Virus record (IMG/VR): IMGVR_UViG_2778261161_000003
Span: 1 to 15,670 of that record
Length of the DNA: 15,670 bases
Direction: 5' to 3' (one strand)
From: a virus
Lineage: Duplodnaviria; Heunggongvirae; Uroviricota; Caudoviricetes
A program made the translations under genes and the position numbers. Below the pieces are notes generated by a model. The model had not been told where the DNA came from and did no database searches. It was given only the letters and a program-made list of their open reading frames with translations. Positions 921-15,264 of this stretch are shown here, piece by piece. Position 1 is the stretch's first letter, and every line of letters begins with the position of its first letter.

Positions 921-1164
921 AGCGACCTCCCTTTGCGTGGTGCTGCCGCTATTTTAAGTTGTACTAGCTCAGACTCCAACCGACAGTTTGCGTAGCCAGA
1001 ACGCAATCAAACCTGGCAATCCGCTTTGAACTCGCAGCGACAAGCGTGCGTTCTCACATAAATGAAGATTATTGGCTTTTTACCATATGTGGGAGTGGTG
1101 CTTTTGTTAGTAAAAGGTGATGATAGGTTTTTTCCTATGCACACCCATTGGTTAGTCAAGAGAA

Positions 1165-3132
1165 ATGACAGAATTTGAGATAAATAGCCCACTACTTCAT
1201 CTCGCTTTGCTTGAAACACTGAAGCGTGACGACATTCATGATGAGATAGATTTGTTTCTTCCGTTTATTGCTGTAACAGCCTCCGAAATTGGCAAGCCTG
1301 TTATTAATGAAAATGATATACAGGATAAACTTCAGCAAAACTTCGGGTTCAAGCCGCCACTGGCAGCAGTGAAGGTATTGATGACGCGAGCCAAGAAAAG
1401 AGGCCTTCTAATCCGTGAAAATTTCGCCTTTATTCCAGTGCACGAAAAAATAACTGAATGGAAAAATGGATTTGAGCATAAAAAAGAAGATGTAGAAACA
1501 TCTCTTGCAAGTCTCAAGCGTGAATTTATCATTTTTACAGAAGTCAACTTTGGTAAAAAACTATCTGATTCTGAAGCTGAAAAGTTAATTATCGGATTTA
1601 TTGAGGTTAACGTTAGTAGTGTGATAAGTCATAGGGCTTATCATCGAATGGAACAAGCAGAACGTATTAAAAATACTAATCATGTTATTGCATCTTTTAT
1701 TAGTCATATTCACCGAAACCAACCAAGAATTTTAGAAGATTTCAGTCGATGTGTAAAAGGTATGTTACTGGCTAACTATCTCTTTTATGCAGATAAGGCC
1801 ACAGATAAAAAATCTTATAAGGGAATAACAGTTTACCTTGACTCTCCTATAGTCATTGGCATGCTTGGATATAGTGGACGCCAAGCAAAAGAGGCATATA
1901 CAGATTTTTTAAATCTTCTAAAATCACTAAGTATTGAGATAGTCATATTTGACCGTACACTTAATGAAATTGAAGGTTTACTATATGCATGGAAAAATGA
2001 TATTTCGAAGAAACGTTATGACCGTTTCAATACGAAGACACTTGAGTGGTTAAGGGCGCAAGGTTATGATGCTGAGCGTATTGATACTGACCTTAAGCTA
2101 CTTGAAAGTAATATCAATAAGCTTGATATCAATATTAAACTTGGTTTTACTCCGAAAACAAAGTTTCAATGCGATGAAGCTAAACTCCAGAGTGCTATTG
2201 GTCGGGCTTTTCACAGAGACAAAAATCTTGAGCACGATACTATTTGCATTTCCCGCATACATAATATGCGGGAAGGTAGAGTGATCAATAATCTTAGCCA
2301 GTCTTTTAGTGTTTTTGTTACGCCTAATACTAGCCTCGTCAAGGAAGCTAATGATTTTTTCCGTCATGATACTAAGCGCCAAGCTATTCCAGTCGTCGTT
2401 TCTGAACAGTGGATGACGGCTATGTTCTGGCTAAAAAAGCCAGATATTTATGCTCAACTACCTCAAGAGCAGCTTCTTTCAACGGCCTACAGTTTATTGT
2501 ACACCGACGATCGATTCTGGGAAGCTTTCATAAATCGTCTCGAAAATCTTGAAAAACGAGGAGATATTACTCAGGATGAGTTTCTTCAGATCCGCTGGGA
2601 TAGTGATCTTCTTCGGCTTGTGCATGATGTATCTGTCGATGTGGGAGAGGATTTTTCCGAGGAAGATGTTTTTGACGTGGTTAACACAATCAAGCGAAGG
2701 CATGAGGAAAAACATCAGAGTGATATGGCAGAGCTAGAAGACCGTGGCCGACAGGAACTAGAGAGTTTGCGTCAAAAAACATCCACACAACTTCAGACGA
2801 TTAATCTGGAAAAACAAGCTGCGCAGGCAAGAATTGAATCTTTAGAGCGAAAAATACGCAAGGGTAGTGCCTTTCTAGCTGGCGCTTTAGCTTGGTTTTT
2901 TAGTGGATTGCTGGTCTTTTCTCTTTGTCTGGCTGCTGTCAAAGGAATTCCCGATGAAATGCAGCCCGCTATGTTTAGAAGTGACTTATTCAGAGGAAAT
3001 CTGGTAGGTGTTAGCATAATTGTTACTTCATTATTTGGAGTGCTCAGTAGTGTTACAGGAATTGATTTAGCCATTTGTCATAAATTCATAAAATCACGTA
3101 TTGAAAAATGGTTTTTTTCATTATTTAGTTGA
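1165..3132 (+). CDS. Hypothetical 655-aa protein: large soluble N-terminal region, coiled coil, two C-terminal transmembrane helices; AT-rich cargo gene
   Basis: Long uninterrupted ORF in a visibly AT-rich segment. Heptad-like charged region at about aa 520-570 (ELEDRGRQELESLRQ...IESLERKIRK), then hydrophobic helices AFLAGALAWFFSGLLVFSLCLAAV and LVGVSIIVTSLFGVLSSVTGIDLAI. No Walker A or other catalytic motif recognised. Start ATG 1165 has only a weak SD. Confidence 0.7.
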   Translation: MTEFEINSPLLHLALLETLKRDDIHDEIDLFLPFIAVTASEIGKPVINENDIQDKLQQNFGFKPPLAAVKVLMTRAKKRGLLIRENFAFIPVHEKITEWKNGFEHKKEDVETSLASLKREFIIFTEVNFGKKLSDSEAEKLIIGFIEVNVSSVISHRAYHRMEQAERIKNTNHVIASFISHIHRNQPRILEDFSRCVKGMLLANYLFYADKATDKKSYKGITVYLDSPIVIGMLGYSGRQAKEAYTDFLNLLKSLSIEIVIFDRTLNEIEGLLYAWKNDISKKRYDRFNTKTLEWLRAQGYDAERIDTDLKLLESNINKLDINIKLGFTPKTKFQCDEAKLQSAIGRAFHRDKNLEHDTICISRIHNMREGRVINNLSQSFSVFVTPNTSLVKEANDFFRHDTKRQAIPVVVSEQWMTAMFWLKKPDIYAQLPQEQLLSTAYSLLYTDDRFWEAFINRLENLEKRGDITQDEFLQIRWDSDLLRLVHDVSVDVGEDFSEEDVFDVVNTIKRRHEEKHQSDMAELEDRGRQELESLRQKTSTQLQTINLEKQAAQARIESLERKIRKGSAFLAGALAWFFSGLLVFSLCLAAVKGIPDEMQPAMFRSDLFRGNLVGVSIIVTSLFGVLSSVTGIDLAICHKFIKSRIEKWFFSLFS

Positions 3133-3144
3133 CTTTTACTAAAG

Positions 3145-3180
3145 GAGAAATGCGGTTAATAATTTTGAACCGCATTTCTC
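3145..3180. repeat. Perfect 13-bp inverted repeat forming a stem-loop just after the 655-aa ORF
   Basis: GAGAAATGCGGTT (3145-3157), 10-nt loop, AACCGCATTTCTC (3168-3180). No U-tract on either strand, so it is not a canonical intrinsic terminator. Confidence 0.45.
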
Positions 3181-3314
3181 TGGGCTGTTATCTGATATAA
3201 TTAGTATCCATATCTAGTACAGATGAGGCTGTTAGAAGTGTCAAAACAACCTACGGTGGATAGAATTGACTGTGTGTCCAACGTTGAGAGGGATAATGTA
3301 ATAAAGCATTATCA

Positions 3315-3680
3315 GTGCACAATAGACATCTAGGGGGAACCTTGGCTAAGGTGACCAGAATTCAGGCCGGGCAATATGCAGTAGATGATGGGCGTTTCAT
3401 CGTAAAAAATAGCTCAGGATGGCTCGTTGTTGATGTTAATGGCACCCATGATTTTGGGCCTGTTCCAACGCTAGCAGCAGCGAAACAATATGTTGAGTCT
3501 GGCGCGGTTCCGTTAGGGCAACATAATTTGTCTACAGTACATGGCCGCAGACAAAGCAAAAAAGAGTTTAATGCATATCTGGCATCTGAAGCTAAGAATG
3601 GTAATCCAATGCCAGCTATTCTTTGGATCATTGTTCTTTGTATCATCGGTGGTGTTGTCTTGGCTGTGAGAGGTTATTAG
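3315..3680 (+). CDS. Hypothetical small protein (about 109-121 aa) with a C-terminal transmembrane anchor
   Basis: ORF ends in hydrophobic segment AILWIIVLCIIGGVVLAVRGY. Start ambiguous: ATG 3315 or in-frame GTG 3351 downstream of AGGGGGAA. Same strand as the 655-aa gene. Confidence 0.45.
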   Translation: MHNRHLGGTLAKVTRIQAGQYAVDDGRFIVKNSSGWLVVDVNGTHDFGPVPTLAAAKQYVESGAVPLGQHNLSTVHGRRQSKKEFNAYLASEAKNGNPMPAILWIIVLCIIGGVVLAVRGY

Positions 3681-3830
3681 CTTTGGATAGATTAGCTGAT
3701 TTTCTACTCACGGATTGATGCGGATAGCTATTATCTATGTCCGCTTTCTAGCGCAGAGCGGATTGTCAGATTAGGTGGACCTGTGCCGTAAACGTGTCAG
3801 CTTTGGTCTGAGCTAATGCATCCAAGTTGT

Positions 3831-4940
3831 TCACTCTGTTTCTGCTATCCATTCAGGGATTTTTGTCTCAAGCTCAAGCCGCGTGGTAAACCCACTGTCA
3901 TCAATGGTGTGCTCGGCTTTTGCAATAATCCAGTTCTGTTTATCAATGTCGCTTTTGAATCCTGTCACCGTGCCATGCATTTCGGGGTAGAGTTCTGCGC
4001 GTCCACGCGCCAGCGTGATGGAAAAAGATGCGGCCCCGCGTTGTAGCTGCTGCCACTTTGCCGCCGCTGCGCGTCTTGCTGCCTGTTCATTCTGGTAGGT
4101 TTTGCGTAACACAAATACGTTGCCTTCCGCTCCTTCCATATAATCGCCTTCGCGGCTGCTGCTTTGCTCCTTTTTCGGTTTTGGCGGTTTGCGGCGTTTC
4201 ACGCTGACTTTTTTCTTTTTCCCGTAGTTAAGATCAAGCCAGTAGGCGCGTACACCCGTATACGCCTCGCGGTCAGCAATTCGGAACTGATGGCGATCGC
4301 CGCTGCTGCGTGTGATGGTGAACGATGGCAGCGGCTGGCCCTGTGCGTTCACGCCACCGCCTGGCATGATGAATAACAGATTTCCGCTTTTTACCGTGGT
4401 GATTGCGCCCAGCATTTCCGCCATGCGCGTAAGGAAGGACATGTCGCTTTCTTCGGTCTGGTCGGCGTGGTCGATTTCGATATCCATCAGCATTTCGCTG
4501 ATTTGTGGTTTCAGGCCGTACCGGTGAGCAATGGCAGACACCACGCGCTCAACGGTCACATCATGCCAGGACACTTCACGCTTAACGTTAAATTCATCCC
4601 GAAAATCTGCGCTTCTGGCTGAAACAGTCAGCGTGTCCGGTGGCCCTTCGTGAGCGATTTCATCAACAATGTAAGTGCCTTTTTCGGTCAGTGGTTCTCC
4701 TTTCCAGCCAATGAGAACCGTCAGGTGAGCGCCCCGTGGCGGTAGCTGCAACTGGCCATCGGCATCATCCAGCGTGATGGTTAGCTGGTCAGCTTCAAAT
4801 CCTCTGTTGTCGGTCAGCGACAGACTCATCAGGCGCTCTGCCACGCCGGACAGCGCTTTACCTTCCGCAAGAATATCAAAATCCGGCATTTTCACGGGGT
4901 CTGCGCGCTGACTGAGTAATTGCATGGTGGTATCGGTCAT
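3831..4940 (-). CDS. D: Phage tail protein D (P2 late control gene D family)
   Basis: Translation from MTDTTMQLLSQRADPVKMPDFDILAEGKALSG onward has the overall layout of P2 gpD-family tail proteins, including the lysine-rich linker KKKKVSVKRRKPPKPKK. Start chosen at ATG 4940-4938 because of SD GGGAGG 6 nt upstream; the track ORF extends to 5072 but that N-terminal extension lacks an SD. Confidence 0.85.
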   Translation of the reverse strand: MTDTTMQLLSQRADPVKMPDFDILAEGKALSGVAERLMSLSLTDNRGFEADQLTITLDDADGQLQLPPRGAHLTVLIGWKGEPLTEKGTYIVDEIAHEGPPDTLTVSARSADFRDEFNVKREVSWHDVTVERVVSAIAHRYGLKPQISEMLMDIEIDHADQTEESDMSFLTRMAEMLGAITTVKSGNLLFIMPGGGVNAQGQPLPSFTITRSSGDRHQFRIADREAYTGVRAYWLDLNYGKKKKVSVKRRKPPKPKKEQSSSREGDYMEGAEGNVFVLRKTYQNEQAARRAAAAKWQQLQRGAASFSITLARGRAELYPEMHGTVTGFKSDIDKQNWIIAKAEHTIDDSGFTTRLELETKIPEWIAETE

Positions 4941-5097
4941 CTGCTCCCTCCCTGCGTGGCATAGTCGCATGTGCGTGCGGCGGGGGTTACTGCTTTTTGT
5001 TGTCGTCGGGCGGGGAGAACAGCGCAAGAGTGAGATTGTGCGCGTGGTGGGTGATGATTGTTGCCGAATCATTTAACGGATACAAGGGGCTGAAGCT

Positions 5098-6282
5098 ATG
5101 AGTGAAACTCGTTTTCATGGTGCCCGTGTTACGGAAAGTACCGACCTGGTAACAGCGATTAATGACGTTGATTCCAGTGTTATTGGTATCGTGGCAACGG
5201 CGGATGATGCGGACGCAAAGCAGTTCCCGCTGAACAAGCCCACGTTGCTGACCCGCGTCAATGACGTGCTGGGAAAATGCGGGACTACGGGGACGCTTTA
5301 TCGTGCGCTTAAGGCCATCGCAGACCAGGTGAGCACAAAAGTGATCGTCGTTCGCGTGGCTGAACACAAAGAAGAAGACGGTAAGACGCAGGATCAACTG
5401 GTTATCGGTGGTTCTGAATCTGACGGCAGCTATACAGGGATGTATGCGCTGCTTGTTGCAGAGCAGGATGAAAGTATCGGATACCGTCCGCGTATTCTGG
5501 CTGCGCCGGAGCTGGACACGGAGGCGGTAACAAAATCCCTGTGCGTGATTGCAGGTAAACTGCGCGCGTTTGTGTATGCCTCATGTCACGGCTGTAACAC
5601 GATGGCTGAGGCGATTACCTACCGCCAGAAATTCAACGAACGTGAGGTGATGCTCTTATGGCCGGACTTCATCGCCTACAACCCGAAAAGTGGCAAAAAC
5701 GAAACGTTCCCCGCGCCTGCCTATGCGTGCGGCCTTCGTGCGTACATTGACCATGAGCAGGGCTGGCACAAATCACTGTCCAACGTTCCGGTTAAAAATG
5801 TGCTGGGGATGTCGAGGCATGTGTTCTGGTCGTTGCAGGCCGAAGACAGTGATGCCAACAGCCTCAACAACAAAGAAATCACGACCATTATTCGTCGCAA
5901 CGGGTTCCGCTTCTGGGGCAACCGCACACCGGAAACGAACGCCTACATCTTTGAGGTGTATACCCGAACCGCACAGGTGCTGGCTGATTCAATTGCGGAA
6001 GCGCAGTTTGAAACCATCGACAGTCCACTGACGCCTGCGAACGTGAAGGATGTTATCAGTGCCATCAGGGCAAAACTGGATTCACTGGTTACTGCCGGGA
6101 AACTGATTGGCGCGGAGTGCTGGTATGACGTGGTGGATAACAGCACCACGGATTTACGTCAGGGGCGTGTGCGTATTCGCTACAAATATACGCCTGTTCC
6201 GCCACTGGAAGACATGGAGCTTTACCAGACGTTTACTGATGAATACTTTGAACCTGCATTTGCGGTGCTGGGAGGTGCCTGA
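5098..6282 (+). CDS. FI: Contractile tail sheath protein (P2 FI-like)
   Basis: 394 aa, collinear with P2 FI (e.g. WPDF, EQGWHK.LSNV, RRNGFRFWGNRT, YKYTPVPPLE). SD AAGGGG 8 nt upstream of ATG 5098. Confidence 0.9.
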   Translation: MSETRFHGARVTESTDLVTAINDVDSSVIGIVATADDADAKQFPLNKPTLLTRVNDVLGKCGTTGTLYRALKAIADQVSTKVIVVRVAEHKEEDGKTQDQLVIGGSESDGSYTGMYALLVAEQDESIGYRPRILAAPELDTEAVTKSLCVIAGKLRAFVYASCHGCNTMAEAITYRQKFNEREVMLLWPDFIAYNPKSGKNETFPAPAYACGLRAYIDHEQGWHKSLSNVPVKNVLGMSRHVFWSLQAEDSDANSLNNKEITTIIRRNGFRFWGNRTPETNAYIFEVYTRTAQVLADSIAEAQFETIDSPLTPANVKDVISAIRAKLDSLVTAGKLIGAECWYDVVDNSTTDLRQGRVRIRYKYTPVPPLEDMELYQTFTDEYFEPAFAVLGGA

Positions 6283-6794
6283 TGGCTGTGCCAAAACATC
6301 TTCGCTTTTTCACGCTGTTTGTGGATGGTGAAAACGAAGTGGGGAAGGTGACGTCCGTCACTCTGCCTAAACTGACGCGTAAAATAGACAGCTATCGTGG
6401 TGGTGGCATGATGGGGGCGGTGAGTATCGATCTCGGTCTGGATGATTCGGCTCTTGATGCGAGCTTTGTCATGGGCGGCGCGGTTCGTGAACTGTTCCTT
6501 AAGTATGGCGGCACGATTGACGGCACGCTGCTGCGCTTTGCAGGTGAATACTACACCGATGCAGAAAGCGACCTGTATGAAGTCGAAATGCGCGGACGTG
6601 TGACGGAAATTGATATGGGGGAAGCCAAACAGGGCGAAGCCACATCACACACTTACGCCATTAAAAACACCTACTACAAGCTGAGTGTTAACGATCGCCC
6701 GTTGTGGGAGATTGACCTGCTGAACTTCATTTACCGGAAGGACGGCAAGGACATTGTGCCCGATCGCATCCGTTCCGCGCTCGGGCTTGGCTGA
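6282..6794 (+). CDS. FII: Tail tube protein (P2 FII-like)
   Basis: 170 aa; MAVPKHLRFFTLFVDGENEVGKVTSVTLPKLTRKIDSYRGGGM matches the P2 FII N-terminus pattern. ATG overlaps the FI stop (TGATG), SD GGGAGGTG upstream. Confidence 0.9.
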   Translation: MAVPKHLRFFTLFVDGENEVGKVTSVTLPKLTRKIDSYRGGGMMGAVSIDLGLDDSALDASFVMGGAVRELFLKYGGTIDGTLLRFAGEYYTDAESDLYEVEMRGRVTEIDMGEAKQGEATSHTYAIKNTYYKLSVNDRPLWEIDLLNFIYRKDGKDIVPDRIRSALGLG

Positions 6795-6849
6795 TAAGTA
6801 ATATGCAGGCGGCGCAGTGCGTTGCCTCTGACTGAAAAGGAGACAACTG

Positions 6850-7224
6850 ATGAAAGACATCGATACTGAAACCCGGAATAACACCGTAGCGGATGATGTG
6901 ACGGCAGGTGAGGATATGGCTGTCGAACGTGGTGTAAAACTTTCCCGGCCAATTGAGCGTGGTGCCGAAAAAATCACATATGTGGAAATCACCGGGGCTA
7001 TTGAGCAGGCGGGATCCCTGCGTGGTCTGTCGCTGTCTGATGTGCTGAATCTGAAAGCGGATACCATGTTCACGCTGTTGCCTCGCGTGACCTCGCCACG
7101 ACTGGATGAAGTGATGATTAAAAAAATGTCGTCACGCGATTTTATTCAGTTGTGCGCTGTGGCTGTAAATTTTATGAGCGAGCCAGACTCTGGCGCGAAG
7201 AGCGTGCAGGAGACGGCAGCGTAA
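6850..7224 (+). CDS. E: Tail assembly chaperone E (zero-frame product)
   Basis: 124-aa ORF between the tube and tape-measure genes, the conserved position of gpE in P2-like tails; SD AAAGGAGA upstream of ATG 6850. Confidence 0.8.
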   Translation: MKDIDTETRNNTVADDVTAGEDMAVERGVKLSRPIERGAEKITYVEITGAIEQAGSLRGLSLSDVLNLKADTMFTLLPRVTSPRLDEVMIKKMSSRDFIQLCAVAVNFMSEPDSGAKSVQETAA

Positions 7225-7388
7225 TCACCCTGGTGTGCTTTGAGCACATCGAAGATCTGGTGGCGGATATTGCCGCCATTTTTAACTGGTCGCCCGCCGA
7301 AATCTTCATGATGACGCCCGGCGAAGTGGTTAGCTGGCGTGAGCGGGCGGCACTTCGCAGCGGGAATGCAGACAATGAAGACTCTTGA
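6850..7388 (+). CDS. E': E+E' fusion predicted from a programmed -1 translational frameshift
   Basis: The -1 frame relative to E is open from 7122 to TGA 7386-7388, overlapping the 3' end of E and running up to the tape-measure start. Same logic as P2 E/E' and lambda G/GT. The exact shift site is inferred. Confidence 0.55.
7167..7173 (+). promoter_or_regulatory. Candidate -1 slippery heptamer A AAT TTT
   Basis: Fits X XXY YYZ in the E zero frame (codons AAT 7168-7170, TTT 7171-7173), inside the E/E' overlap. An A7 run at 7120-7126 is an alternative but re-pairs less well. Confidence 0.4.
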
Positions 7389-10182
7389 TATCCGGGTCGC
7401 TTTCAGCGCCGTTGACAGGCTGACCCGGCCTGCCGAAAACGCCCTCCGCCTGATGGGGCAGTTTGGTGACTCCATCCAGCGAACGCAGGGGGCGATCAAA
7501 AATCTCGAGCGTCAGGCGCGATCATTCGAGCGCGCCCGCGACGCTGTCAGTAAAGCGGATGCGGGCATCGTGAAAGCACGACGCCAGCTTAACGCCCTTA
7601 ATCAGTTACAACGCACGGGTACAGTGCTCAGCGAAAAACAACAAAAGCTGATGCAGCAGTTAAGCACCCGGCTTGAACGCCTGAATGAATCGCGCACACG
7701 GGAAATTCAGAAAATGCGGGAGCTTGGCGGAGAGCTGAAACGCCACGGCATTTCCCTGACAGGCAGCGATAACACCATCCAGCAGGCCATCAGACGCACC
7801 GAACAGTACAACAACCAGCTTGAACGCGAACGGCAGGCGCTTGCGCGTGTAACGCGGGCGCGTGAGCGGTATTCGCGCGCGCAGGAAACCGCGGGAAAAC
7901 TGAAAACAGGTGGTGCACTGGCAACAGGTGCGGCAGCGGCGGGCGGCTATGCTGCCGGGCGTTTTTTGCAGCCCGCGATTGGGTTCGGGAAAGAGATGTC
8001 CCGCGTTCAGGCTCTGACGCGAATCGACAAAAACAGCCCGCAGTTTAAGGCGCTGCGTGAGCAGACGTTAAAACTTGGCTCTGAAACGCAGTTCACTGCA
8101 GGCGATGCCGCCAGTGGGCAGGCATTTCTTGCAATGGCTGGCTTCACACCGCAGGCCATTCAGGCTGCGCTTCCCGGCGTGCTGAGCATGGCAACGGCTG
8201 GCGGTATGGATCTCGGCGAGACGGCGGATATTGGCTCAAATATCCTGACGCAGTTCGGCCTTTCTGCTGACCAGATGGACCGGGTCGGTGACACACTCAC
8301 CGCAGCGTTTACCCGTACCAACACTGACCTTCGCGCACTGGGCGAAACCATGAAATATGCAGGTCCGGTAGCGGGTAAGCTGGGAATATCGCTGGAGCAG
8401 GCCGCAGCGATGGCTGGCGTGTTGGCGAATATGGGTATCAGAGGGAGTGATGCTGGGACGGCAATGCGTGCCAGCCTGGCTCGTCTGGCATCACCGCCAA
8501 AGGCGGCAGCAGAGGCGCTGAAAGAGCTTGGTGTGGCTGTTTCTGACGCGAACGGCAAAATGCGCCCGATGGAGGATGTGCTGGCCGACCTTTATAAAGC
8601 CACCCGCAAATACGGGGAAGTTGACCGGGTATCGTTCTTTAAGGACATTGCCGGAGAAGAGGCTTTCACATCATTTATGGCCCTCGTTGATGCGGCAGGT
8701 GACGGCTCCCTGCCCAAACTGAGAAAAGAACTTGAAGGCGCGCGCGGTGAGGCTGAACGCACGGCAAAGGTTATGGCCAACAACCTTGACGGCGATCTGA
8801 AATCACTCAGCAGTGCATGGGAAGGGTTGCGCATCCGCATTGCAGATCTGATTGACGGTCCGCTGCGTTCTGTTACGCAGTGGCTCACGCGAGTGGTCTC
8901 AAAGGTGACGGCGCTGGCGCAGGCCCATCCCGCACTGACGCGCCAGCTACTGATAGCAGGCGGTGCGTTGCTGGCAATGACTGCAACGGTTGGCTCGTTG
9001 TCGCTGGCTATTGGTGTGCTTGCTGGCCCGCTGGCAAAACTGCGTCTTGGTTTTTCTCTCCTGACCGGATCAATGAATGCTGTCAGGGTCCTGCCAGCAC
9101 TATGGGGAATGGTGACGGGTTCCGTTTCTTTACTGGGAGGCGCTATCGGGGCGTTGTTCAGTCCGGTTGGTCTTATCGTGGCTGCGCTTGCCGGAGCTGC
9201 CGTTCTTATCTGGAAATACTGGGATCCCATCAGGGCATTTTTTGCCGGGGTGTTCAGCGGGATTATGGAAAGGCTGACCCCGTTGCGCGAAACCTTTGAA
9301 CGGTTTGGTCCTGTTTTTGACGCAATCGGAAGCGGGATCAGCCAGGTGTTTAACTGGTTTAAATCGCTGCTGTCACCGATGGAGTCCAGCAAGGAAACGC
9401 TGGATAAATGTACCAGTGCTGGCGAGATATTCGGTAACGTTCTTGGCGGTGCGTTACAACTTGTTCTGACACCTGCAAAAATGCTACTGGATACGCTGGC
9501 GTGGATACTTGAAAAACTTGGCGTCCTTCCGGATGAAGCGGAAAGGGCGCGCAAGAAAATCGAAGACGCACAGCGTGCGGCCATTCTTCAGGACAAGGTT
9601 GCCTTGCTTCAGGGGGACCTGGCGAAAATCAATCCGCCGAAGCCTGTGGAAAATGGCAATGGCACCGGAGGTGATAAACCCAAAGACAACAAACCGCTCA
9701 CAGACAGCAATACCGGGACGCTACGCAGACTCAGCAAAATTGCTGATAACACAGGTAAGCTGGTTGATGAGACGAAAAAACGCATTGGCCCCGGCGATAT
9801 TGTCTTTAAGAACCTGCCCCGAGCACTTGCTGTTCGTGGGGAGTGGCAGGAGCGGAAGATTGCGCAGGTCAGTAAGCCTGCCCCCGCAATTAATATCACA
9901 CCTGTGGTTCCGGCTCCGCTGCCTCCGGCGCTGGTCCCTGTTGTTGCGGCCAGCTCCCGCCCGGTGGCAGAGGCCATACGATCGCCAGTGGCATCAGTTC
10001 CTGCAACTTCCCGTAACCGGGAGCCTGTTGCCTCCGGATTTGGCGGTGAAATTCATGTTCATCTGCATAACGTTGTTACGCAGAATCCCCGCGAACTGGC
10101 GAAACTGGTCGGTGAAATGGTCAGGGCAGAAATGGAACGGCGCGCCCGTGCCGGGCGTGGAAGTTTTTACGATAAAGATTGA
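7375..10182 (+). CDS. T: Tail tape measure protein (P2 gpT-like)
   Basis: About 935 aa, alpha-helical N-terminal region, Gly/Ala-rich hydrophobic central segment, Pro-rich C-terminal region; position after E/E'. Start set at ATG 7375 (GGGAA 8 nt upstream); in-frame alternatives at 7366 and 7339. Confidence 0.88.
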   Translation: MKTLDIRVAFSAVDRLTRPAENALRLMGQFGDSIQRTQGAIKNLERQARSFERARDAVSKADAGIVKARRQLNALNQLQRTGTVLSEKQQKLMQQLSTRLERLNESRTREIQKMRELGGELKRHGISLTGSDNTIQQAIRRTEQYNNQLERERQALARVTRARERYSRAQETAGKLKTGGALATGAAAAGGYAAGRFLQPAIGFGKEMSRVQALTRIDKNSPQFKALREQTLKLGSETQFTAGDAASGQAFLAMAGFTPQAIQAALPGVLSMATAGGMDLGETADIGSNILTQFGLSADQMDRVGDTLTAAFTRTNTDLRALGETMKYAGPVAGKLGISLEQAAAMAGVLANMGIRGSDAGTAMRASLARLASPPKAAAEALKELGVAVSDANGKMRPMEDVLADLYKATRKYGEVDRVSFFKDIAGEEAFTSFMALVDAAGDGSLPKLRKELEGARGEAERTAKVMANNLDGDLKSLSSAWEGLRIRIADLIDGPLRSVTQWLTRVVSKVTALAQAHPALTRQLLIAGGALLAMTATVGSLSLAIGVLAGPLAKLRLGFSLLTGSMNAVRVLPALWGMVTGSVSLLGGAIGALFSPVGLIVAALAGAAVLIWKYWDPIRAFFAGVFSGIMERLTPLRETFERFGPVFDAIGSGISQVFNWFKSLLSPMESSKETLDKCTSAGEIFGNVLGGALQLVLTPAKMLLDTLAWILEKLGVLPDEAERARKKIEDAQRAAILQDKVALLQGDLAKINPPKPVENGNGTGGDKPKDNKPLTDSNTGTLRRLSKIADNTGKLVDETKKRIGPGDIVFKNLPRALAVRGEWQERKIAQVSKPAPAINITPVVPAPLPPALVPVVAASSRPVAEAIRSPVASVPATSRNREPVASGFGGEIHVHLHNVVTQNPRELAKLVGEMVRAEMERRARAGRGSFYDKD

Positions 10183-10194
10183 GGAGTCATGGCC

Positions 10195-10683
10195 ATGATG
10201 ATGATCTACGGCATGTTTGTTTTTGAGCTGCGCACGCTGCCGCATCAGCAGTTACAGCAAAACAAAAGCTGGCGGCATGTGAAAAATGAACGCGTTAACC
10301 GTTCAGCAAGCTGGCAGTATATCGGTGCAGGTGATGATCGCATCGTGCTTTCTGGTGTGCTTTATCCTGAAATTACAGGTGGCGAAGTGTCGCTGTCGCT
10401 GCTGACCACGCAGGCGTATACAGGACGACCCTGGCCTTTGATTGATGGTGTCGGGCAGATTTACGGCATGTATGTCCTGACCGGAACGAATACGACCCGT
10501 TCCGAGTTTGATCGCTACGGTAAGGCGAAAAAGATAGAATTTTCACTGACCCTTGAACGCTGTGATGAGGATTTGCGGGAGCGCCTGCAATCCTCATCGT
10601 TCAGCGATATGCTGTCCGGCTTCAAAGATAAGGTGACATCATCTCTTAACAGCGCGGCCAGTTCAGTTAAAGGACTGTTCTGA
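10195..10683 (+). CDS. U: Tail protein U (P2 gpU-like)
   Basis: MAMMMIYGMFVFELRTLPHQQLQ, GAGDDRIVLSGVLYPEITGG and WPLIDGVGQIYGMYVLTG resemble P2 gpU. SD GAGGAG (10181-10186) is 8 nt before ATG 10195; ATG 10189 is an in-frame alternative. Confidence 0.88.
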   Translation: MMMIYGMFVFELRTLPHQQLQQNKSWRHVKNERVNRSASWQYIGAGDDRIVLSGVLYPEITGGEVSLSLLTTQAYTGRPWPLIDGVGQIYGMYVLTGTNTTRSEFDRYGKAKKIEFSLTLERCDEDLRERLQSSSFSDMLSGFKDKVTSSLNSAASSVKGLF

Positions 10684-10692
10684 TTTTACATT

Positions 10693-10737
10693 GCCGCCAA
10701 TACCCTCATATTGGGTAATGGGCGGCTTGTTGTTATA
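10693..10737. terminator. Stem-loop between convergent U and glycosyltransferase genes; probable bidirectional terminator
   Basis: GCCGCCAATACCC / GGGTAATGGGCGGC imperfect hairpin (10693-10726) followed by a T-rich run TTGTTGTTATAT. Confidence 0.5.
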
Positions 10738-10779
10738 TAATATATCGTAGGTCCTGATAAAACTGTTGAGGTTTCTACT

Positions 10780-12018
10780 TTATAAAGAATTGCTACTTTC
10801 TAATTCTGGGTTTCTGGAACTATTTTTACAACCTAAATCCGAGTGGTAATTCGGTATATCGTTTGTCAAATCTTGTTTGATAGCATTAATTAAGATCATT
10901 ATGTCGAATTTATGCATATCGTCGCCCCCTTCAGACCTTAGATGTTCGGATGTGGTGAGTTGAGTCGCTAATTTGCTGTTTGGCCCCCACACAATATTAT
11001 TTTCGAATTTTCCTTCATGCATTCTGTTATTATATATACAGTATTGTCTAATGTTTAATGCACTGGCTAAATGTACAATGGCAGTATCTACAGTTATAAC
11101 AAAATCAGCATGGCGAACCAATGCAAATGAACATCCGGCATCAGAAAATGGAGATAGAGACACATTATCCAATCCATTGTGATTAATCTGTTTTCCCATA
11201 TTAAAAACTATTGTGTGATATCCCTTAAGGTTATTAAGGTAAGCTAGTACTTTTTTTATCTGTTCATCAGATAAGGTTCTGCTATTCTGAGAGCCATAAG
11301 GGTTAAATATAACTAATTTTTTGTTTTTTTTTCTGAATTCATTTGCAACAATATTTGCTGGTTCATATATTTTGTTGTCAAAATTAAGCGCTGCAGCATA
11401 ATTATTATTTTTTATCTTTAGTAAAGATAAAACTTTTTTCATTCTTTCAGATGTGTGAATGGAACGATTATCGATTATATTTGTATCAAAAATAGTTACG
11501 GCAGGATGATTAAAACAGATAGAGTGTTTAGGTCTAAGTAAATGTAGTGTTTGCAATCTGGTTATCGCTGTGTTATCAAAATTTGAGAAGTCAACAACAA
11601 GATCTACATTCAGTTTTTTTATCTTTGCTTTTAGTTCGTTAAATTTATTTTTCTCGTAAGATATAAAGGCATCCACGCCAACAATGTCAGTAAAGAGGAA
11701 TGATACTCTTGAAGGTGCTATCACATATACCACCATACCGGATTTTTGAAGTTGTTTAATAAACCCTGAGGTAACGATGCCGTCACCAATGGCTTGCATG
11801 TGCATGAAAATGCACACTGTTTTATAACTATCCGGCTGTAATGATGTTTTCCTTCTGTATCGCATTTTTAGAAATGCCAGTCTGGCCTTCGTCTTTATCT
11901 TTTTTGTTTTAATATTTCGCTGTCTGTTAAGCTGTTTTAACGATGAAATAACATTCATAATGGTACCCTGAAATTCCAAATCACACATGTCATCCGTAAT
12001 GAGCAGGGTACTATACAA
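10780..12018 (-). CDS. GT-B-fold glycosyltransferase, family 9 (heptosyltransferase-like) with N- and C-terminal extensions; AT-rich cargo gene
   Basis: N-terminal KTVCIFMHMQAIGDGIVTSGFIKQL resembles the GT9 motif (ILIIRLSSLGDV type). C-terminal FALVRHADFVITVDTAIVHLASALNIRQYCIY resembles the GT9 nucleotide-sugar-binding motif (GNDSG.MHLAAAL type). Start uncertain: TTG 12018, ATG 11988 or ATG 11958, all with weak SD. Confidence 0.65.
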   Translation of the reverse strand: MYSTLLITDDMCDLEFQGTIMNVISSLKQLNRQRNIKTKKIKTKARLAFLKMRYRRKTSLQPDSYKTVCIFMHMQAIGDGIVTSGFIKQLQKSGMVVYVIAPSRVSFLFTDIVGVDAFISYEKNKFNELKAKIKKLNVDLVVDFSNFDNTAITRLQTLHLLRPKHSICFNHPAVTIFDTNIIDNRSIHTSERMKKVLSLLKIKNNNYAAALNFDNKIYEPANIVANEFRKKNKKLVIFNPYGSQNSRTLSDEQIKKVLAYLNNLKGYHTIVFNMGKQINHNGLDNVSLSPFSDAGCSFALVRHADFVITVDTAIVHLASALNIRQYCIYNNRMHEGKFENNIVWGPNSKLATQLTTSEHLRSEGGDDMHKFDIMILINAIKQDLTNDIPNYHSDLGCKNSSRNPELESSNSL

Positions 12019-12052
12019 AAAACTGGACTACAATGGTTTGAAATGAAAGCCT

Positions 12053-12652
12053 TTATGCTTGTTTACTCCTTGATTCCACTGGGGAAGCTGGCCACTCAAT
12101 ATCCGGTGCTCTTGATGTATCAACACGGTTCAGCAGCACTCGATACTTCTTCCATGCCACCAGTAACGATGTTTCTTCCTCTGTTGCAATATTCAAATCT
12201 ACGGCATCTTGAAGTGGCGAAATATGCTCACTGGCTACCTGCATGAGGCTGTTTTTTGTTTCTTCCGCCTCCCGTATCCGGAACACTTTTTCTGCTTCCG
12301 TATCCTTCACCCAGGCTATGCCGTTCCACTTCTGATATTCCCCTTCCGGCGACAACCAGGTGACATTTTCCGGTAACGGACCGAGTTCAGAAATAAATAA
12401 CGCGTCGCCGGAAGCCACGTCATAAACCGTTTTACCACGATGATCTTCAACGAGATGCCAGGACGCCCCATCACTGTTGAAAACAGCCACGAAGCCAGCT
12501 GGAATATCTGGCGGAGCAATATCAGTACTATTTGCAGGCAGACCTGTATGAGGTGGAATGTATGCATCACCTTCACCAATAAATTCATTGGTTCCGACCA
12601 GCAGATTATAAATTTTTATGGTCCGTGATTGTTCACTCATTCTGAATGTCAT
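12053..12652 (-). CDS. tfa: Tail fibre assembly chaperone (lambda Tfa / P2 gpG family)
   Basis: [51 protein letters not shown] and C-terminal [36 protein letters not shown] match lambdoid Tfa proteins closely. Start ATG overlaps the fibre stop (TAATG). Confidence 0.9.
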
Positions 12653-13734
12653 TATGCAAGCCTCACAATATAGTTAAATGCGATGTTTTTTACGGTGTTT
12701 TCTGCGTTCCCCGTAGCATTAACGGTGATGGTGTGTCCGTGGGGACCAATAATGACAGAATGGGCATGAGCACCAATGCCGATAGTGTGGTTATGGGCAC
12801 CGATATATACATTGTGAGCATGCCCTCCTGCGCTCGACGTGGTACCAGTACCTAACGCAGCGTTATAACCGGCTGATACACCATTCCCCGCGCCAGTGTG
12901 ACCAACAGGTATATTGTGTGAATGAGCTCCTGCGCTATTTGTGGTTTTTGTGCCGTAATCAAATGAACTGGTCGTTTTAGTACCGTAATCAAACGACGAT
13001 GTGGTTTTCGTCCCCAAATCAGTACTGGATGCGCTGGCGCTGTGGGTGTGCGATTTAATGCCGTCCTGTTCCTGAGACAATACGGCACGACCACTGGCAG
13101 GTTTGCCCTTGATAGTCCAGCCACGCATATCAGGGATCACGCCTGACGGATAAGCGACTGCAAGTTTCGGGTATGCAGATTTGTCAAAAGTCTGCCCCTG
13201 CATCAGGGCATAACCAGACGGAACGGTATCTGATGGCCACGGAATCGGTGCACCGACTGGATAAAACTCTTCAGGAGGATGAGCCGAGGTGTAAAGCTGC
13301 GCCCACGGCGACCAGTTTGCGTCGGTCGTATCCCGTCGTGAACGAATAAATGCCGGAGCATGAGCACCGCTTATACCACTCCAGCCGATGAGTAATTCGC
13401 CTTCGCCAACGGCTGTCATCCCTTTCAGGTGAATGATATTTCCATACGCTGTTGGATATCCGTTGTTATACGCCTCGTATAACTCCAGACCTGTGGCCCC
13501 CTGCATATTATCTGTCAGGGCGGTCAGCCGACCTTTTGAAGCCAGATTAACTGACGATACTGCTGTCCCATCTGACGGTAACGCCCCGATCTCTGATGCT
13601 GTTGGCTTATTCCTGGAGTTATAGTCCCTTCGCCAGCCAGGAGCATAAGCATCACCATGATTAATATAAGTAAATTGAGCATTAGGGATGCCTTCACCGC
13701 TGGATGTACTCGGTGTGGTAATGCGTATGGTCAT
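12652..13734 (-). CDS. Short tail fibre protein (360 aa) with tail-collar-like region and His-rich C-terminal tip
   Basis: [34 protein letters not shown]...IPDMRGW resembles the phage tail-collar domain. Followed by [10 protein letters not shown] tandem repeats and GAHxH/GHxH repeats typical of fibre tips. Much shorter than P2 gpH (669 aa). Confidence 0.8.
12936..13025 (-). repeat. Intragenic tandem repeat, about 3 x 30 bp, in the tail fibre gene
   Basis: CCGTAATCAAA recurs at 12953-12963 and 12983-12993 with a degenerate third copy at about 13012-13022; encodes [10 protein letters not shown] / [10 protein letters not shown] / [10 protein letters not shown]. Confidence 0.6.
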
Positions 13735-13835
13735 TGCGCCGCGGGTGCCAATAACCCATGCTCATCGCGGTAGGGATAGAACGCTGCTAAACGCTCAAAG
13801 TCTGCCTGTTCGTGTGTGTTCAGGACTTTTGCCAT
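13731..13835 (-). CDS. 34-aa ORF translationally coupled to the tail fibre gene; possible remnant of an early (cox-position) gene
   Basis: [34 protein letters not shown]; its TGA overlaps the fibre ATG (ATGA at 13734-13731). Sits where cox lies in P2, divergent from C. No convincing homology recognised. Confidence 0.3.
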
Positions 13836-13893: not shown

Positions 13894-13908
13894 TTGTGCG
13901 CAAGCTTA

Positions 13909-13926
13909 GTGTACTTATAGGAACAC
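13909..13926. promoter_or_regulatory. Operator candidate O2: GTGTACTTATAGGAACAC (16/18 identical to O1)
   Basis: Second copy 33 bp centre-to-centre from O1, overlapping the C ribosome-binding site (AGGAA). Confidence 0.45.
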
Positions 13927-13931
13927 TGTCA

Positions 13932-14240
13932 ATGCTTATCGGTGAAAAAATTAGAGTGATTCGTGAATCAGAGGATTTAACGCGCGAAGAATTTTGCGGC
14001 CTGATTGATGTGCCTATCGGCACTTTGCGTCGTTATGAAACGGGGCGGATTGAAAACATAGGGGGCGAAGTGCTTATCAAGATTGTTAATCACCCTCGCT
14101 TTTTTAAGTACATGAATTGGCTTATGACGGGAAAAACAAATGAGGCTGCTGGGCAGATCAGTCCGTCTCTCTCCCCTGATGGGCCAAAAAGCACATCGCC
14201 TTCTCAAAAACCCCGCAAGACTGGCACACAGCCCGGCTAA
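13932..14240 (+). CDS. C: P2 C-type immunity repressor
   Basis: About 102 aa; N-terminal HTH (GEKIRVIRESEDLTREEFCGLIDVPIGTLRRYETG) and C-terminal FFKYMNWLMTGK...GQISPSL parallel P2 C (FTKYTLWFMTNQ...GQIAPAL). Start ATG 13932 with SD AGGAA 8 nt upstream; located immediately upstream of int. Confidence 0.85.
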   Translation: MLIGEKIRVIRESEDLTREEFCGLIDVPIGTLRRYETGRIENIGGEVLIKIVNHPRFFKYMNWLMTGKTNEAAGQISPSLSPDGPKSTSPSQKPRKTGTQPG

Positions 14241-14289
14241 TCATGGAGCGCTGGGGGCATGGTGGTCTTGTAACGCTGGGGTTTCACGA

Positions 14290-15264
14290 ATGAGCATAAA
14301 ATCAATTCCGGGAGGGTATCTTCTTGACATGCGCCCGGAGGGGCGTAAAGGCAAACGCATTCGTAAAAAATTTAAAACGAAATCGGATGCAGTTTTATAT
14401 GAGCGGTGGGTGCTGGCGCAACAGCATAACAATGAGTGGAAAGGAAACTCCATTGATCGCCGTCCGCTGTCAGTGCTTATTGACTTGTGGTGGAAATACC
14501 ACGGCCAGCTAATGAAGTCAGGGCATAACACGCGCCTTAAATTGCTGCGCTTGAGTGAGGCAATGGATGACCCGTGCGTGCATAAACTTAATACAACGAT
14601 GCTCACCGAGCTACGTGTGTCCAGGATAGAGCAGGGGATACAGCCCAGCACCATAAATCGAGAGATTGGGGCGTTAAGCGCGATGTTTACCGCACTCATC
14701 TCATCCGGCCATTTTCTTAACGATAACCCCGTTCAAGGCCTTAAAGGAATGAAGGTTAACGAGCGCGAAATGGGATATCTGAGTAAGTCTGAATGTGTTC
14801 AGTTGCTGGATGCACTGGCTGAAAATCCCGATGAACGGCTGGCTGTCGAAATCCTTCTGTCGACCGGGGCGCGATGGGGCGAGGTAGCGGCACTGGAGCA
14901 GCGCCGTGTTCTTCATTGTCGAATCACTTTTTCAAAAACGAAGAACAGCAAAAACCGTACCGTTCCTATTTCTGAAAGCCTGTTTGAAAAGATCAAAATA
15001 CGGGGCGGGAAACTGGTGTTTCCGACGCTGGATTATCCATTGGTTCGCGATGTCATCAAAACGGTCGCACCTGATGTTCCTGACGGCCAGGCTGTTCATG
15101 CGCTGCGCCACACCTTCGCCAGTCATTTCATGATGAACGGCGGCAATATTCTGACGCTCCAGAAAATTCTGGGGCACGCAAAGATTCAGACAACGATGAT
15201 TTATGCCCATCTTGCGCCGGATTACTTGCAGGATGCGGTGAGATTTAATCCTATTGCTGGGTAA
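14290..15264 (+). CDS. int: Tyrosine recombinase, P2 Int family
   Basis: MSIKSIPGGYLLDMRPEGRKGKRIRKKFKTKSDA N-terminus and catalytic motifs LSTGARWGEVAAL, HALRHTFASHFMMNGG, LGHAKIQTTMIYAHL are collinear with P2 integrase. Start placed at ATG 14290; the track ORF begins upstream at 14140. Confidence 0.9.
   Translation: MSIKSIPGGYLLDMRPEGRKGKRIRKKFKTKSDAVLYERWVLAQQHNNEWKGNSIDRRPLSVLIDLWWKYHGQLMKSGHNTRLKLLRLSEAMDDPCVHKLNTTMLTELRVSRIEQGIQPSTINREIGALSAMFTALISSGHFLNDNPVQGLKGMKVNEREMGYLSKSECVQLLDALAENPDERLAVEILLSTGARWGEVAALEQRRVLHCRITFSKTKNSKNRTVPISESLFEKIKIRGGKLVFPTLDYPLVRDVIKTVAPDVPDGQAVHALRHTFASHFMMNGGNILTLQKILGHAKIQTTMIYAHLAPDYLQDAVRFNPIAG

Follow-up and report, generated by a model that had tools for sequence, protein, structure and literature searches.

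Why should a decayed prophage keep an intact glycosyltransferase gene next to its tail-fibre genes? The DNA analysed here, a stretch of 15,670 nucleotides from IMG/VR record IMGVR_UViG_2778261161_000003 (hereafter the window), is a decayed P2-like prophage of Escherichia coli, and it matches the ihfA–btuC region of strain MEI7BO1-21 with 99.98% identity across 12.8 kb. On the minus strand, directly after a fibre fragment and the tail-fibre assembly (tfa) gene, which lie on the same strand, it carries a gene of glycosyltransferase family GT9 (10780–11958). The reading that we favour, with somewhat better than even confidence, is that the gene encodes an active WaaU-like GT9 enzyme which modifies the outer core of lipopolysaccharide (LPS), and that phages carry it as single-gene cargo altering phage adsorption.

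An initial annotation had described an AT-rich open reading frame (ORF) of 412 residues at 10780–12018. A minus-strand ORF of this length, read from a TTG codon, is indeed present, and it lies in a cassette of low guanine–cytosine (GC) content (0.34), but the length of the protein had to be revised. When the 35-member family was aligned, the conserved sequence of the 34 homologues was found to begin at the ATG at 11958; the RefSeq annotation is likewise the 392-residue form starting at this codon (WP_040082324-type), and the in-frame stretch between the TTG and the ATG (11959–12018, minus strand) is conserved in no homologue. The true start is almost certainly the ATG at 11958, giving a protein of 392 residues. 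With this start the first 20 residues of the 412-residue reading would be an artefact of ORF calling, and 11959–12018 is most likely an untranslated leader outside the protein.

Assignment to GT9, which the initial annotation had based on two hallmark motifs, was borne out by profile search. Pfam PF01075 (Glyco_transf_9), for which the cut-off is 22 bits, matched with 27.4 bits (E 2.6e-6); this match was confined to the C-terminal nucleotide-sugar region (only residues 224–332 of the 412-residue reading), and the match of E. coli K-12 WaaU to the same profile is similarly weak and local (37.9 bits). Both motifs are present, and their residues G58, D59, D291, T292 and H296 are invariant in the 35 family sequences. 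G58–D59 is situated in the first beta-alpha turn, the GD motif aligning with D13 of WaaC, and V-D291-T292-x-x-x-H296-L-A aligns with D261, T262 and H266 of WaaC (261-DTGLSHL). A ColabFold model built from the family alignment had a two-Rossmann GT-B fold with a predicted local distance difference test score (pLDDT) of 90.3 and a predicted template modelling score (pTM) of 0.86, and its top Foldseek matches were the GT9 structure 3tov, WaaC and WaaF (E 1e-14 to 1e-10). Searches of PDB chains with the single protein and with the family profile gave nothing significant; the best hit was to WaaC over the VDTxxxHLA segment (E 0.09). The motifs and the model support the view that the protein is a GT9-family glycosyltransferase with a GT-B fold. 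RefSeq already labels it as a 'glycosyltransferase family 9 protein', and PHROG 36326, a family of 'unknown function', matches it at E 3e-241. The NCBIfam equivalogs WaaC (TIGR02193; 23.2 bits against 185.3) and RfaQ (NF007742; 20.8 against 467) stayed below their cut-offs, and the protein is therefore no orthologue of the inner-core enzymes.

Extensions of about 60 residues at both ends had also been proposed, with the suggestion that they might form extra domains. This description did not hold. The N-terminal extension comprises about 45 residues and the C-terminal one about 22; what had been proposed as extensions is in part the start-codon artefact and in part a clade feature shared with WaaU. 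The N-terminal residues form one long helix (residues 2–33 in the model) with 14 Lys/Arg and one acidic residue. This cationic helix is kept across the family and is common to K-12 WaaU, which has 9 Lys/Arg in its first 40 residues; it is a trait of the clade, most plausibly a membrane-surface anchor. The C-terminal residues (371–392) are predicted to be disordered and occur only in E. coli-type sequences. No extra domain was found in either extension of the structure model.

We then scored a hidden Markov model (HMM) made from the family alignment against the four GT9 proteins of E. coli K-12. The results showed that WaaU reached 117.9 bits over residues 13–334, its N-terminal basic helix included, whereas WaaQ, WaaC and WaaF gave 23.8, 14.8 and 8.9 bits, respectively. 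Pairwise BLASTP against WaaU gave 23% identity over 334 aa (E 7e-18). Judged from these scores, the closest characterised relative is K-12 WaaU and not the inner-core enzymes WaaC, WaaF and WaaQ; by homology the gene belongs to a WaaU-like GT9 clade, in which it is a paralogue and not an orthologue of WaaU. WaaU, formerly RfaK, is the ADP-heptose-dependent LPS heptosyltransferase IV. It adds HepIV to GlcIII of the outer core, and HepIV is the O-antigen attachment site (PMC13293308). K-12 WaaU is the only studied member of this small divergent clade.

A profile search of 1.84 billion representative sequences found 118 clusters at E ≤1e-30 and 768 at ≤1e-10. The close relatives amounted to just 35 clusters (90% identity clustering), 38–98% identical, and on these counts the family is a modest GT9 sub-clade. 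Relatives with 43–55% identity occur in chromosomal waa core and O-antigen clusters. The one with 55% identity (P0009) is the last gene of a waaL-GT9-GT4-kinase-GT4-GT8-GT8 cluster adjoining waaA-coaD, and a Serratia contig has upstream genes whose sizes match those of this cluster. Gilliamella and Brenneria copies stand among GT8 WaaO/J-type and GT4 genes, and an Orbus copy is accompanied by two sulfatase-family genes as well as by GT2 and GT9 genes. Citrobacter-type copies are flanked by asmA on one side and galF on the other; a further copy is flanked by galF and wzx and has a WaaL-like gene in its vicinity. LPS modification is, on this evidence, the best-supported function. The initial annotation had named the LPS inner core as a possible target; its choice of LPS fits these data, but the outer core or the O-antigen attachment region is the likely target rather than the inner core, because WaaU outscores WaaQ, WaaC and WaaF and because the chromosomal relatives are placed distally in waa clusters or beside galF, wzx or waaL-like genes.

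The same contexts could also be read in another way, namely that the enzyme acts on a different envelope glycan, such as the undecaprenyl-pyrophosphate-linked O-unit, the O-antigen-to-core linkage, enterobacterial common antigen or capsule, and brings about a change of serotype and not of the core. Several relatives of 46–47% identity are found at the edge of or inside O-antigen clusters, in the arrangements asmA-[gene]-galF and galF-[gene]-wzx, and the alternative cargo found at the same position in sister prophages, described below, is a hexapeptide acyltransferase, a class often used in O-antigen acetylation. On the other side, waa core clusters contain the relative with 55% identity as well as those of Orbaceae and Brenneria, and the copy in an O-antigen cluster has a WaaL-like ligase alongside, which fits a WaaU-type role at the ligation site on the core. 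Lipid A-core is, to our knowledge, the substrate of every LPS-type GT9 enzyme characterised so far. We therefore regard another glycan as an unlikely target, although it is the rival that keeps most of its force.

Besides the chromosomal loci, members of the clade were found in temperate phages of different kinds. Two of these are E217/Pam3-like prophages: in that of Providencia stuartii the gene comes directly after those for the fibre and Tfa, at the end of the prophage, and in that of P. alcalifaciens (L004) it stands last in the tail module. In a Mu-like prophage of P. rettgeri it is again found directly after fibre and Tfa, and in one more phage it comes after the portal gene. Because relatives occupy LPS loci as well as unrelated temperate phages, the clade is, as far as gene contexts tell, one with ordinary LPS-assembly members that have been repeatedly captured by phages, usually beside the receptor-binding module. 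An orphan copy with no phage structural genes left is present at yfhL in P. rettgeri (L100/L101, 7001–8535), and the small ORF downstream of it is 72% identical to the ORF beside the P. alcalifaciens prophage copy. A conserved two-gene module of GT2 and GT9, suggested by the Orbus and P. rettgeri copies, was considered and rejected, as the GT2 proteins are 26–30% identical, no more than GT2 enzymes share in general. In the phage collection, megablast gave no match. The only tblastn matches there were in the Campylobacter phages A11a and A18a (~174 kb), with 23% identity over 81% of the query (MG065691.1, 142249–143205; MG065686.1, 30918–31874). Since the collection holds no near-identical match, the E. 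coli form is absent from the deposited phage genomes.

These observations are consistent with the following course of events. Temperate phages would have acquired the gene from a waa or O-antigen locus on a chromosome and would carry it, as cargo of one gene, just downstream of those for the fibre and Tfa. Its product would work at the cytoplasmic face of the inner membrane, held there by the cationic N-terminal helix, and would attach a single sugar distally on the nascent lipid A-core, ahead of flipping by MsbA. The donor would most probably be L-glycero-D-manno-heptose from ADP-heptose, a compound that all hosts of the family make in any case. Expression in the lysogen would then alter the core that is bound by P2-type fibres and by many other phages, and so alter adsorption; the site of O-antigen ligation might be changed too. 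The lateral fibres of P2 attach to the LPS core of K-12, and mutants with an altered core are resistant to P2vir (PMC8594841). In this proposal, the gene has stayed intact amid prophage decay because altered adsorption benefits the host. The analysis itself shows the fold, the family, the conserved motifs, the gene contexts, the exchange of the cassette and purifying selection; which sugar is donated, which residue accepts it, that the lysogen expresses the gene and that adsorption changes are inferred.

A more far-reaching version of the same mechanism, which we hold to be rather improbable, is that the enzyme rewrites the O-antigen attachment site, which in K-12 is defined by WaaU, and thereby switches whether and how the host ligase caps the core. 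If so, one phage gene would control both the exposure of the core receptor and the O-antigen shield, and the close linkage of the gene to those for fibre and Tfa, seen in four unrelated phage backbones, would represent a mobile unit of receptor binding plus receptor editing.

As the initial annotation had noted, the gene is co-directional with the tfa and fibre genes, all three being on the minus strand. The Tfa (gpG-like) gene is directly upstream (12053–12652, minus strand; Pfam Caudo_TAP, E 2.4e-44), and before it lies the C-terminal 360-aa part of a gpH-like tail fibre (12652–13734, minus strand; Pfam Collar domain). This fragment is 99.4% identical to residues 351–710 of the full-length fibre of a sister prophage (L087), the N-terminal half having been removed from the window by deletion. 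The earlier suggestion that the enzyme might glycosylate some target other than LPS received little support at this point. Expressed as a protein O-heptosyltransferase like TibC or AAH, which would act on the tail fibre or on another phage or host protein, the idea agrees with the GT9-like GT-B fold that the window protein and these enzymes have in common. TibC was, however, not the closest relative by structure or by sequence, being a much poorer structural match, and the glycosyltransferase gene is intact where the fibre gene is truncated. We consider protein heptosylation quite improbable.

Comparison with sister prophages in O111:H8 and O157:H7 genomes (L087 and L088) showed that the gene occupies an exchangeable slot. 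Homology to the window in blastn stops at 10701 and restarts at 12088, and in both sister prophages the same slot holds a 190-aa hexapeptide-repeat acyltransferase gene (13041–13613 in each), whose product is possibly another modifier of surface glycans. This acyltransferase is annotated as 'serine O-acetyltransferase' and lies on the other strand. The exchanged cassette of the window (10702–12087, 1,386 bp), delimited by flank homology and composition, has a GC content of 0.34, compared with 0.55 in the FI–U tail block and 0.49–0.55 in the flanks as a whole; no direct repeats flank it. Because the flanks are conserved and the content is swapped, 10702–12087 is an exchangeable accessory (moron) slot directly after the Tfa gene, in agreement with the variable cargo slot that the initial annotation had placed after the fibre-assembly gene. 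Co-variation of the cargo with the fibre tip and Tfa was also considered and rejected, as the fibre is 99.4% and Tfa 89.5% identical in the two prophages with the other cargo.

The slot had further been placed between tfa and the block of tail genes and equated with the Z/fun slot of P2. The position is correct, but the FI-FII-E-T-U block is inverted and on the opposite strand, so that its last gene, U (gpU tail protein, 10189–10683, plus strand; Pfam Phage_P2_GpU, E 1.5e-38), and the glycosyltransferase gene run towards each other. The FI-FII-E-E'-T-U block as a whole (5098–10683, plus strand) is inverted relative to D–ogr (3831–5072, minus strand) and H–G (12053–13734, minus strand), whereas the FI–U, H–G and D–ogr genes of P2 all point the same way. 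It is because of this inversion that the gene converges on U and does not precede FI, and the analogy to Z/fun is one of position only. The inversion was also found in three further prophages (L087, L088 and L090), at the ihfA and leuZ-yecA sites and including the nearly intact O111:H8 prophage. Since independent complete genomes show it, at two different integration sites, an assembly artefact was rejected and the inversion is a feature of the lineage. As a consequence of the inversion, gene D would need its own promoter.

An intracellular role in anti-phage defence or abortive infection, unrelated to envelope glycans, might be considered from this position, since Z/fun is an abortive-infection gene of P2 (PMC8594841) and since the neighbouring slot between ogr and D contains candidate defence genes, for example that of a PIN-domain protein in L087. 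The protein itself gave no match to any PADLOC defence family at E up to 0.1, its catalytic GT9 motifs are invariant, and its close relatives are housekeeping-type genes of LPS clusters; we give a defence function very little credence.

The distribution of the gene in E. coli suggests that it has been kept for the cell. It was found in 49 of 5,426 complete E. coli genomes (~1%), chromosomal every time, at three insertion sites (ihfA–btuC, leuZ–yecA and yfhH–yfhL). The yfhH–yfhL copy is the variant of E. coli L6-21 (L089). The surroundings were read for four copies (the window, L001, L089 and L090), each of which lies in a degraded prophage with a truncated fibre gene. In spite of this decay, 48 of the 49 genomes have an intact glycosyltransferase frame, the remaining copy being split by an IS5-family element, and the ratio of nonsynonymous to synonymous substitution rates (dN/dS) between site variants was 0.26 against a 96% variant and 0.16 against a 99% variant, values that rest on small counts (47 and 13 substitutions) and indicate purifying selection. 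An intact frame together with a low dN/dS is what one would expect of cargo from which the cell benefits, and survival of the intact gene in dead prophages would make it a clean example of cargo domestication. That the gene is a non-functional relic is very unlikely, because the degraded surroundings, the one interrupted copy and the failure to recognise a promoter (see below) stand against a frame kept intact at three loci, the low dN/dS values and catalytic motifs invariant in the 35 family members.

Several findings weigh against an outer-core enzyme that is active in the lysogen. The identity to WaaU is just 23%, and because of this the donor and acceptor of WaaU cannot be transferred to it with confidence. 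The waa core type was read in one of the 49 carriers, MEI7BO1-21, whose locus is of the R3 type (waaQ-G-P-I-Y-J-D-L; L092, NZ_CM149560.1, 120783–128968) and has no waaU; an R3 core does not have the GlcIII–HepIV arrangement of K-12, and the acceptor must therefore differ from that of WaaU. Nearly the same fibre and Tfa accompany a different cargo in the sister prophages, and cargo and receptor-binding tip are therefore not tightly co-adapted. Finally, consensus scans upstream of the gene on the coding strand recognised no sigma-70-like promoter, scans of this strand for terminator consensus sequences were no more informative, and the late-operon promoter region is deleted in the remnant.

If remodelling of the core by the window enzyme is confirmed, its substrate would be the phage receptor that is most conserved among Enterobacterales, which bears on the host range of phages in therapy and on the core typing of E. 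coli; the carrier gene sits outside the waa locus that core-typing schemes read. Phage-driven conversion of LPS is well known for O-antigens, through the Gtr and Oac systems. Our literature searches turned up no account of a cytoplasmic GT9 transferase of the core type that is carried by a phage.

Some further features of the remnant were noted. A hairpin (10693–10726; −21.3 kcal/mol, z −3.2) lies between the convergent U and GT9 genes. It is followed on the plus strand by UUGUUGUU, which is U-rich only on the strand opposite the GT9 gene, and the hairpin is terminator-like for the FI–U operon. At the other end, the fibre remnant is fused directly (junction at ~13752) to a helix-turn-helix repressor-like gene (13896–14240) and an integrase gene (14140–15264), from which it follows that a single large deletion took the baseplate, lysis, head and replication genes. 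The window retains 958 bp of the fibre gene (12794–13751) that are absent from MEI7BO1-21, so that further erosion differs by strain. Rfam RF02111 ('IS009') matched over its full length with 187 bits at 12111–12309 on the minus strand, wholly within the 3' half of the tfa coding sequence; this 'RNA' family may simply model conserved tfa coding DNA.

The slot between ogr and D (988–3806 in the window) is a second variable one. It encodes a 655-aa protein (1165–3132, plus strand; GC ~0.40) with a C-terminal hydrophobic segment and a 121-aa protein (3315–3680, plus strand). Neither had a Pfam, PHROG or NCBIfam match, the only PADLOC match being a weak one to 'orphan MTase' (methyltransferase; E 0.007). 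Of the sister prophages, L087 has here the gene of a 500-aa PIN_4-domain protein and L090 a 340-aa ORF that matches nothing in Pfam, and the slot looks like a candidate hotspot of anti-phage defence.

Compared with known systems, the enzyme resembles WaaU most closely. The two are of similar length, both have the cationic N-terminal helix and the GD and VDTAxVHxA motifs, and the distal end of the waa operon is the place of waaU and of the chromosomal relatives alike. They differ in that the window gene is prophage-borne and outside the waa core locus, in the remnant between ihfA and btuC, and in that one host has an R3 core lacking the acceptor context of WaaU. From WaaC, WaaF and WaaQ the difference is greater: similarity is barely detectable (9–24 bits), the long basic N-terminal helix is missing from these enzymes, and, as the inner core is complete in every host, an extra copy would have no obvious role there. 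TibC and AAH use ADP-heptose, the donor that we propose for the window enzyme. With P2 Z/fun there is in common a variable slot of exchangeable content directly downstream of the fibre-assembly gene G; owing to the inversion of FI–U, it is situated here between G and U and not between G and FI.

The prophage serotype converters, that is, the GtrABC GT2 systems and the Oac-type acetyltransferases of P22, SfV, Sf6 and similar phages, offer a functional parallel, since they too are AT-rich, single-function cargo of temperate phages that alters LPS and hence adsorption; an acyltransferase is also the alternative cargo of the window slot. Gtr systems work in the periplasm on completed O-antigen, by means of an Und-P-sugar and a membrane GT-C enzyme. 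The window protein is, in contrast, a soluble or peripheral GT-B enzyme predicted to act in the cytoplasm on lipid A-core, with the core and not the O-antigen as its target. If this is true, it would represent a distinct route of lysogenic conversion, cytoplasmic, core-directed and of the GT-B type, beside the periplasmic, O-antigen-directed route of Gtr and Oac.

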